From NCBI GenBank assembly GCA_964016885.1, contig OZ024756.1, positions 5,952,001 through 6,016,000 of the forward strand: a stretch of DNA of 64,000 nucleotides, in the 5' to 3' direction. The notes below the pieces were generated by a model. The model was given only the letters and a program-made list of their open reading frames with translations. It did not search any database and was not told where the DNA came from. Below are positions 3,001 to 7,694 of this stretch, one piece after another (position 1 is the stretch's first letter; every line of letters starts with the position of its first letter). Origin of the DNA: Eledone cirrhosa (taxonomy: Eukaryota). Made by a program: the position numbers and the translations under genes.

Positions 3001-5137
3001 GTCATACTGGTTTTTGAGGAAACACCTTTCCTCTATTCTCCAGAAAGCCAGACAAGGAATATTGAACTAGTTTCGTTGTTGTTACAACTCATCAGCAATA
3101 TTTACCTATCTTCCGGCCTCTCTAGAGAATCGTAAAAGCACATATCGCTATATGCTTTTTCTATGAAAATTAGTAGTGGGCAGACCAACTTGCATAGAGT
3201 GTGAGTAAGTACCGGTTCAACGGAGACGATAAAAACAAATAACGAAACGAAATTAAATTTTGTTTCGTTTGTAACTCACTTTTGTATGACTGACGCTCAA
3301 ACAATTAAGTCAAAGATGTACATCCATATATGTATACTGAAATACTAGTATGTATATGAATACACACACGTATACATATGTAGATGTACCAAGTTTTTTT
3401 TCACTGATCACTTTACTGTGAGTGGCCAGCTATTCTGTATGTAAACACACAGACAAACCGGTTTTTAGAGTCATACTGGTTTTTGAGGAAACACCTTTCC
3501 TCTATTCTCCAGAAAGCCAGACAAGGAATATTGAACTAGTTTCGTTGTTGTTACAACTCATCAGCAATATTTACCTATCTTCCGGCCTCTCTAGAGAATC
3601 GTAAAAGCACATATCGCTATATGCTTTTTCTATGAAAATTAGTAGTGGGCAGACCAACTTGCATAGAGTGTGAGTAAGTACCGGTTCAACGGAGACGATA
3701 AAAACAAATAACGAAACGAAATTAAATTTTGTTTCGTTTGTAACTCACTTTTGTATGACTGACGCTCAAACAATTAAGTCAAAGATGTACATCCATATAT
3801 GTATACTGAAATACTAGTATGTATATGAATACACACACGTATACATATGTAGATGTACCAAGTTTTTTTTCACTGATCACTTTACTGTGAGTGGCCAGCT
3901 ATTCTGTATGTAAACACACAGACAAACCGGTTTTTAGAGTCATACTGGTTTTTGAGGAAACACCTTTCCTCTATTCTCCAGAAAGCCAGACAAGGAATAT
4001 TGAACTAGTTTCGTTGTTGTTACAACTCATCAGCAATATTTACCTATCTTCCGGCCTCTCTAGAGAATCGTAAAAGCACATATCGCTATATGCTTTTTCT
4101 ATGAAAATTAGTAGTGGGCAGACCAACTTGCATAGAGTGTGAGTAAGTACCGGTTCAACGGAGACGATAAAAACAAATAACGAAACGAAATTAAATTTTG
4201 TTTCGTTTGTAACTCACTTTTGTATGACTGACGCTCAAACAATTAAGTCAAAGATGTACATCCATATATGTATACTGAAATACTAGTATGTATATGAATA
4301 CACACACGTATACATATGTAGATGTACCAAGTTTTTTTTCACTGATCACTTTACTGTGAGTGGCCAGCTATTCTGTATGTAAACACACAGACAAACCGGT
4401 TTTTAGAGTCATACTGGTTTTTGAGGAAACACCTTTCCTCTATTCTCCAGAAAGCCAGACAAGGAATATTGAACTAGTTTCGTTGTTGTTACAACTCATC
4501 AGCAATATTTACCTATCTTCCGGCCTCTCTAGAGAATCGTAAAAGCACATATCGCTATATGCTTTTTCTATGAAAATTAGTAGTGGGCAGACCAACTTGC
4601 ATAGAGTGTGAGTAAGTACCGGTTCAACGGAGACGATAAAAACAAATAACGAAACGAAATTAAATTTTGTTTCGTTTGTAACTCACTTTTGTATGACTGA
4701 CGCTCAAACAATTAAGTCAAAGATGTACATCCATATATGTATACTGAAATACTAGTATGTATATGAATACACACACGTATACATATGTAGATGTACCAAG
4801 TTTTTTTTCACTGATCACTTTACTGTGAGTGGCCAGCTATTCTGTATGTAAACACACAGACAAACCGGTTTTTAGAGTCATACTGGTTTTTGAGGAAACA
4901 CCTTTCCTCTATTCTCCAGAAAGCCAGACAAGGAATATTGAACTAGTTTCGTTGTTGTTACAACTCATCAGCAATATTTACCTATCTTCCGGCCTCTCTA
5001 GAGAATCGTAAAAGCACATATCGCTATATGCTTTTTCTATGAAAATTAGTAGTGGGCAGACCAACTTGCATAGAGTGTGAGTAAGTACCGGTTCAACGGA
5101 GACGATAAAAACAAATAACGAAACGAAATTAAATTTT
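1..5137 (-). repeat. 469-bp tandem array, left arm (~11 units, open at window start); HHR-bearing, retrozyme-like
   Basis: The identical 60-aa ORF recurs every 469 bp (140, 609, 1078, 1546...4829). The only difference seen is one T lost from the T-run near 1520. The HHR reads on the minus strand. Confidence 0.97.
245..289 (-). ncRNA. Minimal type-I hammerhead ribozyme; 11 minus-strand copies starting at 245, 714, 1183, 1651, 2120, 2589, 3058, 3527, 3996, 4465, 4934
   Basis: Minus strand: stem I AAUAUUG/CAAUAUU (7 bp), core CUGAUGA, stem II GUUGU-AACA-ACAAC, GAAA, palindromic stem III ACUAGU, and a GUU cleavage triplet (predicted cut between 252 and 251). Confidence 0.9.
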
Positions 5138-7694
5138 TTCTGGAGAATAGAGGAAAGGTGTTTCCTCAAAAACCAGTATGACTCTAAAAACCGGTTTGTC
5201 TGTGTGTTTACATACAGAATAGCTGGCCACTCACAGTAAAGTGATCAGTGAAAAAAAACTTGGTACATCTACATATGTATACGTGTGTGTATTCATATAC
5301 ATACTAGTATTTCAGTATACATATATGGATGTACATCTTTGACTTAATTGTTTGAGCGTCAGTCATACAAAAGTGAGTTACAAACGAAACAAAATTTAAT
5401 TTCGTTTCGTTATTTGTTTTTATCGTCTCCGTTGAACCGGTACTTACTCACACTCTATGCAAGTTGGTCTGCCCACTACTAATTTTCATAGAAAAAGCAT
5501 ATAGCGATATGTGCTTTTACGATTCTCTAGAGAGGCCGGAAGATAGGTAAATATTGCTGATGAGTTGTAACAACAACGAAACTAGTTCAATATTCCTTGT
5601 CTGGCTTTCTGGAGAATAGAGGAAAGGTGTTTCCTCAAAAACCAGTATGACTCTAAAAACCGGTTTGTCTGTGTGTTTACATACAGAATAGCTGGCCACT
5701 CACAGTAAAGTGATCAGTGAAAAAAAACTTGGTACATCTACATATGTATACGTGTGTGTATTCATATACATACTAGTATTTCAGTATACATATATGGATG
5801 TACATCTTTGACTTAATTGTTTGAGCGTCAGTCATACAAAAGTGAGTTACAAACGAAACAAAATTTAATTTCGTTTCGTTATTTGTTTTTATCGTCTCCG
5901 TTGAACCGGTACTTACTCACACTCTATGCAAGTTGGTCTGCCCACTACTAATTTTCATAGAAAAAGCATATAGCGATATGTGCTTTTACGATTCTCTAGA
6001 GAGGCCGGAAGATAGGTAAATATTGCTGATGAGTTGTAACAACAACGAAACTAGTTCAATATTCCTTGTCTGGCTTTCTGGAGAATAGAGGAAAGGTGTT
6101 TCCTCAAAAACCAGTATGACTCTAAAAACCGGTTTGTCTGTGTGTTTACATACAGAATAGCTGGCCACTCACAGTAAAGTGATCAGTGAAAAAAAACTTG
6201 GTACATCTACATATGTATACGTGTGTGTATTCATATACATACTAGTATTTCAGTATACATATATGGATGTACATCTTTGACTTAATTGTTTGAGCGTCAG
6301 TCATACAAAAGTGAGTTACAAACGAAACAAAATTTAATTTCGTTTCGTTATTTGTTTTTATCGTCTCCGTTGAACCGGTACTTACTCACACTCTATGCAA
6401 GTTGGTCTGCCCACTACTAATTTTCATAGAAAAAGCATATAGCGATATGTGCTTTTACGATTCTCTAGAGAGGCCGGAAGATAGGTAAATATTGCTGATG
6501 AGTTGTAACAACAACGAAACTAGTTCAATATTCCTTGTCTGGCTTTCTGGAGAATAGAGGAAAGGTGTTTCCTCAAAAACCAGTATGACTCTAAAAACCG
6601 GTTTGTCTGTGTGTTTACATACAGAATAGCTGGCCACTCACAGTAAAGTGATCAGTGAAAAAAAACTTGGTACATCTACATATGTATACGTGTGTGTATT
6701 CATATACATACTAGTATTTCAGTATACATATATGGATGTACATCTTTGACTTAATTGTTTGAGCGTCAGTCATACAAAAGTGAGTTACAAACGAAACAAA
6801 ATTTAATTTCGTTTCGTTATTTGTTTTTATCGTCTCCGTTGAACCGGTACTTACTCACACTCTATGCAAGTTGGTCTGCCCACTACTAATTTTCATAGAA
6901 AAAGCATATAGCGATATGTGCTTTTACGATTCTCTAGAGAGGCCGGAAGATAGGTAAATATTGCTGATGAGTTGTAACAACAACGAAACTAGTTCAATAT
7001 TCCTTGTCTGGCTTTCTGGAGAATAGAGGAAAGGTGTTTCCTCAAAAACCAGTATGACTCTAAAAACCGGTTTGTCTGTGTGTTTACATACAGAATAGCT
7101 GGCCACTCACAGTAAAGTGATCAGTGAAAAAAAACTTGGTACATCTACATATGTATACGTGTGTGTATTCATATACATACTAGTATTTCAGTATACATAT
7201 ATGGATGTACATCTTTGACTTAATTGTTTGAGCGTCAGTCATACAAAAGTGAGTTACAAACGAAACAAAATTTAATTTCGTTTCGTTATTTGTTTTTATC
7301 GTCTCCGTTGAACCGGTACTTACTCACACTCTATGCAAGTTGGTCTGCCCACTACTAATTTTCATAGAAAAAGCATATAGCGATATGTGCTTTTACGATT
7401 CTCTAGAGAGGCCGGAAGATAGGTAAATATTGCTGATGAGTTGTAACAACAACGAAACTAGTTCAATATTCCTTGTCTGGCTTTCTGGAGAATAGAGGAA
7501 AGGTGTTTCCTCAAAAACCAGTATGACTCTAAAAACCGGTTTGTCTGTGTGTTTACATACAGAATAGCTGGCCACTCACAGTAAAGTGATCAGTGAAAAA
7601 AAACTTGGTACATCTACATATGTATACGTGTGTGTATTCATATACATACTAGTATTTCAGTATACATATATGGATGTACATCTTTGACTTAATT
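5137..7694 (+). repeat. 469-bp tandem array, inverted right arm (~5.45 units)
   Basis: Reverse complement of the same unit. It starts at TTTCTGGAG (5137) and ends at ...GACTTAATT (7694), running directly into (AT)n. Confidence 0.97.
5550..5594 (+). ncRNA. Same hammerhead ribozyme; 5 plus-strand copies starting at 5550, 6019, 6488, 6957, 7426
   Basis: AATATTG CTGATGA GTTGTAACAACAAC GAAA CTAG TT CAATATT read directly on the + strand. Confidence 0.9.

Follow-up and report, generated by a model that had tools for sequence, protein, structure and literature searches.

Head-to-head retrozyme arrays with strictly paired outer ends in Eledone cirrhosa, and their probable origin by double target-primed reverse transcription

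The 64,000-nucleotide (nt) stretch of the Eledone cirrhosa genome considered here (assembly GCA_964016885.1, contig OZ024756.1, positions 5,952,001 to 6,016,000 of the forward strand; hereafter the window, whose own coordinates are used throughout) opens with a tandem array of 469-nt units that switches strand at position 5137. The units are those of a retrozyme, a non-coding element with one hammerhead ribozyme per unit, and 1,823 exact tail ends genome-wide indicate more than 1,800 dispersed copies of the family. Its two-armed copies pair one outer end that carries a tail with one that does not, and this strict pairing, which is tied to the inversion, is a real regularity of the outer ends. 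Such copies were probably inserted by double target-primed reverse transcription with Penelope-type machinery, using one start site per strand on a circular RNA and joining the two complementary DNAs (cDNAs) through microhomology.

The insertion at position 5137 and its ribozyme

The left arm (1..5137, RNA sense on the minus strand) is the reverse complement of the unit and extends to 5137. It continues for 1,467 nt upstream of the window to a total of 6,604 nt, or 14.08 units, and on its outer 3' side it finishes at unit position 305, the tail end. An initial annotation of the window had predicted that this end would lie at (TA)n, and the upstream sequence does show it adjoining (AT)n (L031:7534). 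The right arm (5137..7694, plus strand, 5.45 units) matches the unit without mismatch and loses register at 5136; on its outer 3' side it finishes at unit position 231, the no-tail end, and abuts the right-hand (AT)n microsatellite target (7695..7855, no strand), in whose pure AT a duplication is unreadable. The unit is 36% GC and non-coding, and the array contains no frame of at least 200 amino acids.

Units are numbered from 5588, the first base after the predicted hammerhead cut. Position 5137 corresponds to 5606 one unit on, which makes the first base of the right arm unit position 19, while the last base of the left arm is unit position 273, 6 nt beyond the apex (5131) of a 14-bp hairpin. 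The copy of this hairpin read at the left arm end is truncated (5117..5137, minus strand); a complete copy (5383..5411, plus strand), with the array-wide variant G273A at 5391, lies within the tail segment of one unit (5349..5423, plus strand), which is bounded by the putative reverse transcription start sites at unit positions 231-236 and 301-305. Since the right arm starts from 5137 and the left arm reaches it, exactly one T is common to both, and the head-to-head junction (5134..5139, no strand) shows a run of six T, that is four plus three less the shared one. The joint is offset and has no mirror symmetry. Alignment of both arms to the unit thus bears out what the initial annotation had described, namely arms meeting with one shared T and an offset, and a left break just past the hairpin apex. 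Its claim that the right arm starts 18 nt past the predicted cut also holds: alignment to the Rfam family HH9 places H17 at U5587, so that the 3' product would begin at 5588 and 18 nt of it are missing from the right arm. Neither position exceeds chance: with two ends, one would land in the 18 nt following the cut with probability 0.08, and within the 29-nt hairpin with probability 0.12.

The ribozyme is a predicted type I hammerhead, one per unit (5551..5593, plus strand), with a CUGAUGA core, a predicted cut after U5587, a helix I of 6 bp, a helix II of 4 bp and a helix III formed by the palindrome ACUAGU. Short palindromic helices III, the type found here, are described in the accessible text of PMC4209133 as needing a dimer. 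The alignment to HH9 spans the whole family model (E 9e-8, 37.7 bits) and stays under the gathering score of 52, and an Rfam search of the unit at gathering level found nothing. Among relatives, the H17 base varies between U, C and A. Covariation is seen in helices I and II, with 94% of cells paired and six of 12 pairs compensatory in an alignment of 12 variants that we chose among 40 listed, and the circular fold of the unit is predicted at -152 kcal/mol (z -11). The element has the testable features of a non-LTR (LTR, long terminal repeat) retrozyme: a hammerhead in each unit, a short, low-GC, dispersed tandem repeat, and target duplication of more than 4 bp.

The junction is real and an ordinary member of its family. 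An assembly or long-read chimera is barely credible: the exact joint is unspanned in contigs from eight public runs (X1-X7, and X21, which gave no reads), none of which is known to come from this individual, but the locus follows the genome-wide end rule described below, and contigs from three runs (X1-X3) carry other head-to-head joints of the same polarity, and also loose ends at (AT)n whose positions, 5105 and 5349-5353, are the two fixed ends, so the architecture is not peculiar to this assembly. A further run from another organism (X4) holds a 503-nt contig (contig 17) with one whole unit as a closed cycle, for which tandem DNA, circular RNA and contamination are alike possible.

Polarity and pairing of ends across the family

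Three sets of loci were segmented by two-strand circular alignment. The first came from a search of the genome with the unit, in which the best 33 of 535 candidates were scored and ends were not considered; the second comprised 20 new loci taken from 40 exact no-tail ends; and the third was made up of 80 stretches at the first 100 listed of the 1,823 exact tail ends. With one duplicate dropped (L118, the same as L117), 133 elements remain. The order is minus then plus, that is head-to-head, in 106 of the 133, while 27 are one-stranded, several of these keeping a visible stub of 6-13 nt of the other arm, and the reversed, convergent order occurs in none. The reading that the two arms point apart in RNA sense, made from the single joint, holds for all 106 two-armed elements.

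Both outer ends are visible in 99 two-armed elements. A tail end is paired with a no-tail end in 92 of them, seven have one irregular end, and like is never joined with like (no element with two tail ends, none with two no-tail ends). In the paired elements the no-tail end lies at unit positions 226-237 and the tail end at 295-306, typically at about 231 and about 305, some 74 nt apart. Pairing was found in 25 of 25 elements in the set collected regardless of ends, at the free end in 16 of 17 and 51 of 57 elements of the two anchored sets, and in all nine later additions (four of seven open loci that were closed, plus five new ones).

The insertions sit in a recurrent target, with (AT)n adjoining 180 of 198 ends. 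Duplications, of 12-13 nt, can be read in targets other than pure AT (L052 with L053, L054 with L055, and L035), and a loose rule finds duplications in 15 of 99 elements against 4.6 (maximum 9) in shuffled flank pairs. The lengths of the two arms are correlated overall (rho 0.31), with a value of 0.18 (p 0.22) in the position-ordered set, and the correlation was taken as an effect of sampling. A sister family of hammerhead retrozymes, with about 67-70% identity and a unit of about 480-510 nt, is likewise arranged head-to-head (L235:1063-2144, L226:7579-10000, L229:5-361); the copy in L235 has the same two ends, tail and no-tail.

Joints, break positions and the template

Junction statistics cover 100 simple joints, six of the 106 junctions having extra pieces and being omitted, and microhomology was counted in the 73 that are flush or overlapping, the other 27 having inserted or mismatched bases. 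At least 1 nt of microhomology is present in 59 of the 73 (47% expected) and at least 2 nt in 32 (18% expected), with a span of 1-5 nt; the joint at 5137 scores an overlap of 0 in this count because the reference unit lacks G273A. A route in which the cDNA primes itself and is copied back along its own length, endonuclease trimming then making the tail, has been proposed for related elements in the accessible text of PMC3846280 and PMC8557442. It would suit L040, a perfect palindrome at the hairpin, and near-symmetric joints (within 20 nt) number 14 of 100 against 8.7 expected (p 0.053). Most joints are nevertheless offset, either arm may be the longer (the tail arm in 54 of 88), and at seven loci more than 10 nt of the shorter arm are missing from the longer one, which excludes fold-back there and refutes it as a general route. 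Copying back may explain a few joints and is otherwise highly improbable. The central claim of the initial annotation, that two cDNAs, each primed at a target end, were joined at their 5'-truncated ends, stands on the polarity, the (AT)n ends, the 12-13 nt duplications, the microhomology and these seven loci.

Two further parts of that account, that the right arm had run almost to the 5' end of a self-cleaved linear RNA and that the hairpin had fixed the left break, fared less well once breaks were tabulated in other arrays. Measured against exposure in 198 arms, with this locus excluded and boundaries tolerant of mismatches, break positions are scattered and uniform overall (chi-square p 0.50). 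A cleaved 5' end would give stops at position 1; none of the 198 arms ends at positions 1-3, four end at 1-10 (4.1 expected), and the arms pass the cut site 500 times, so the explanation by a cleaved 5' end is unsupported. Small surpluses do occur around both breaks, with seven ends at 15-23 (3.8 expected, p 0.084) and seven at 269-277 (3.9 expected, p 0.097); L126, from another subfamily, has the same pair 19/273 (0.07 expected); and positions 1-26 hold 19 ends against 12.2 (p 0.039, uncorrected) when one-armed copies and this locus are included. The L126 joint, however, has 4 nt of microhomology, which itself favours that pair, and ends show no bias towards paired or unpaired bases. Several windows were tried for a hot spot at the cut site or hairpin, and none is significant after scanning (best-window p 0.23-0.90). 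Halting at a cleaved end and at the hairpin is thus very unlikely as an explanation of the two arms, while a weak hot spot or minor pause site may exist near 14-21 and 272-273. On this view the places where the arms of this locus broke, 18 nt past the cut and just beyond the hairpin apex, are an ordinary sample from a wide distribution, with a weak pause site at most; the regularity that the initial annotation missed lies in the outer ends.

We also considered whether the tail-primed cDNA had collided with the second start site: 11 ends fall at 226-250 against 5.9 expected (p 0.03 nominal), with a scan p of 0.84, and no such collision is claimed; arms longer than 300 nt contribute six ends there against 4.2 expected. 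In L162 (L162:697-762) both arms end at unit position 14 and are separated by some 65 nt of GC-rich, foreign sequence.

The cut site is crossed by 156 of 200 arms, which means that a circle, or a multimer left uncut, served as template. Among the 321 units of 33 young arrays, substitutions amount to 0.13 within an arm, 0.11 across opposite arms and 1.97 between loci, and 20 singletons are seen. Variants private within the sample are fixed in both arms at 13 of 100 loci. Across the whole assembly C112A occurs only in L074, in all seven units of both arms; G167T occurs in three loci (of 14, 9 and 33 units), two of which are clonal for further variants absent from all units of the others. Outside homopolymer positions of about 126-142, which the variant counts omit, 21 variants are array-wide and seven partial, or eight with the G273A of this window, for which 16 of 17 units are called; all 17 full units at this locus, on both arms, have either G273A or a slippage variant of it. 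Such clonality is most simply accounted for by passage through one monomer. Adenosine-to-inosine editing was rejected as the origin of the fixed variants (A>G four, T>C two).

Two primed strands could each have copied an RNA of its own, either uncleaved linear multimers or sister circles of one source locus. L077 (L077:5444-9572), a single insertion whose arms come from two subfamilies with 15 differences, fits such an origin, as would weak cleavage, given the GUU cut triplet and minimal helix III, and the main substrate of a related enzyme in vitro was unprocessed RNA (PMC11167929). The discordance is clear at one of 75 testable loci despite the existence of several subfamilies, whereas separate RNAs would also have to explain genome-private variants that all units of both arms carry though the assembly contains no source unit for them, and a linear multimer should copy a mosaic, yet array-wide variants outnumber partial ones. 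We consider separate RNAs unlikely. L077 also shows a microhomology switch within its tail arm, which could be template switching between RNAs or later recombination.

Another possibility is that short two-armed insertions, with about one or two units per arm, were lengthened in place by unequal crossing-over, in which case the arrays would say little about rolling-circle copying. Repeated blocks in L073 (about six units), L092 and L155 are of this kind, and the termination hazard drops in long arms. The youngest arrays, on the other hand, have 14-33 near-identical units in both arms with scattered single-unit variants, and arm lengths form a continuum from below 100 nt to above 7 kb, which makes growth after insertion quite unlikely as the main source of the arrays. 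In the array formed by L155 with L209 and L208, which exceeds 17 kb, internal deletions recur, and here a retrozyme is becoming a higher-order satellite.

Candidate enzyme, related systems and consequences

The element codes for nothing and contains no open reading frame (ORF) for a reverse transcriptase or GIY-YIG nuclease. GIY-YIG frames are abundant in the genome (the best 150 of 10,597 candidates were scored), and some of these loci have long reverse transcriptase and GIY-YIG frames with a CxxxxCxxC motif ahead of the nuclease, given as a mark of Neptune and Nematis in the accessible text of PMC8557442. Two copies from one of these families, L229 and L221, lie at (AT)n and show inverted ends, with a tail of about 64 nt on one side.

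On the preferred explanation, double target priming on a circular RNA, a Penelope-type reverse transcriptase/endonuclease, likely Neptune-like, would nick both strands of the (AT)n target, and one strand would be primed at each of the two internal RNA sites 74 nt apart (231 and 305). Copying would then likely roll round one circular RNA and yield tandem units, and the two cDNA ends would likely be joined through short microhomology wherever copying had ended. There is about an even chance that the agent is an asymmetric dimer of the Penelope reverse transcriptase, with one subunit per nicked strand starting at different fixed sites on the same covalently closed ribozyme RNA, and with both strands rolling before they are joined.

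Twin priming in L1 is a known source of inverted structures, in which two cDNAs arise from two nicks and meet at a microhomology joint, with the second priming at variable internal sites on a linear RNA and in a minority of insertions. Here, by contrast, priming uses two fixed sites, the majority of insertions have two arms, and the arms are longer than a unit.

Closer relatives are found among the Penelope-like elements (PLEs). Endonuclease-containing (EN+) PLEs such as Neptune and Nematis are described, in the accessible text of PMC8557442 and PMC3846280, as having an inverted, 5'-truncated head-to-head copy, a tail often at one end and a bias towards (TA)n, and self-priming or endonuclease resolution has been suggested for their origin. 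The inverted truncated copy, one-end tail and AT-rich target recur here; the differences are the lack of an ORF, arms of up to 17 or more tandem units, a tail of about 74 nt rather than 30-40, and a near-absolute pairing of tail with no-tail, and the suggested origins fail for arms that do not overlap. In vitro, the purified PLE protein of PAc Poseidon nicks AT-rich DNA, cleaves both strands and extends them, begins synthesis at two internal sites that flank the tail, and has a predicted dimeric form (PMC11167929), all of which resembles the situation here; its strands are alike in start site and the sites are not linked to two arms, whereas each insertion here uses each site once.

Metazoan non-LTR retrozymes are, in the portions available of PMC7229834 and bioRxiv 10.64898/2026.07.22.740005, non-coding, low-GC, dispersed tandem repeats in which every unit has one type I hammerhead, with target duplications of more than 4 bp, as here. 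The 469-nt unit is slightly above the 150-450 of the former and within the 51-972 of the latter. They are described there as direct tandem arrays, with no two-armed form, paired 3' ends or clonal private variants, and the word 'inverted' is absent from the main text of PMC7229834 in the form available. Tandem cDNA templated by circular RNA has been proposed for retrozymes (PMC7229834), which have also been linked to PLEs by distribution and by pseudo-long terminal repeat (pLTR) similarity, with mobilisation by PLEs proposed and the mechanism left open in the accessible text (bioRxiv 10.64898/2026.07.22.740005). In a literature search limited to non-subscription papers, neither retrozyme arrays arranged head-to-head nor a strict pairing of tail with no-tail ends turned up.

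Several points weigh against the explanation favoured here. Of at least 1,823 tail ends the sample covers about 140, the greater part on one chromosome, with most loci anchored on one end type. Nucleotide similarity between a pLTR and the unit was found at none of 50 GIY-YIG loci (among the 150 scored of 10,597), the matches being neighbouring retrozymes, so the partner PLE is putative. Self-cleavage and a circular RNA are read from the predicted fold and from genomic clonality, and in vitro the start site was equal between strands and ribozyme cleavage dispensable (PMC11167929). To these may be added the weak excesses of ends at 15-23 and 269-277; the discordance of L077, by which two RNAs or later recombination acted at least sometimes; sources absent from the assembly, which could supply two identical RNAs; and the later tandem duplication in L073, L092 and L155, by which not all length comes from reverse transcription.

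Other repeats in the window may be noted. A fragmented long interspersed nuclear element (18847-22131, plus strand), which we take to be Tx1/L1-like, has endonuclease (PF03372) and reverse transcriptase (PF00078) frames, and a second broken non-LTR element (24091-26533, minus strand), presumably R4/Dong-like, has a reverse transcriptase frame and a C-terminal frame without Pfam match. Satellites of 77 bp (28 copies, 8279-10424) and 34 bp (148 copies, 43746-48774) lie near AT runs, and short duplicated motifs at 51217-51256 and 55513-55541 match the Neptune-like PLE copies L229 and L227 in their 3' regions and are PLE fragments.

The origin of inverted copies and one-sided tails in PLEs, and the enzyme that moves animal retrozymes, are posed as questions in the accessible text of PMC8557442, PMC11167929 and bioRxiv 10.64898/2026.07.22.740005. 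The components of the proposed reaction are already published; what is new is that two fixed start sites are used as a pair and that both arms are clonal. A young non-coding family here offers a countable rule, one start site per arm and both arms from one variant, which ties the retrozyme to PLE machinery by mechanism and not by co-occurrence, and disfavours fold-back as a general route. The exact coordinates 231 and 305 on a 469-nt RNA allow the proposal to be tested in vitro. If an asymmetric dimer on one circle is the agent, the tail, the inversion and the tandem array would be products of a single reaction, and satellite DNA would be seeded by insertions of this kind.

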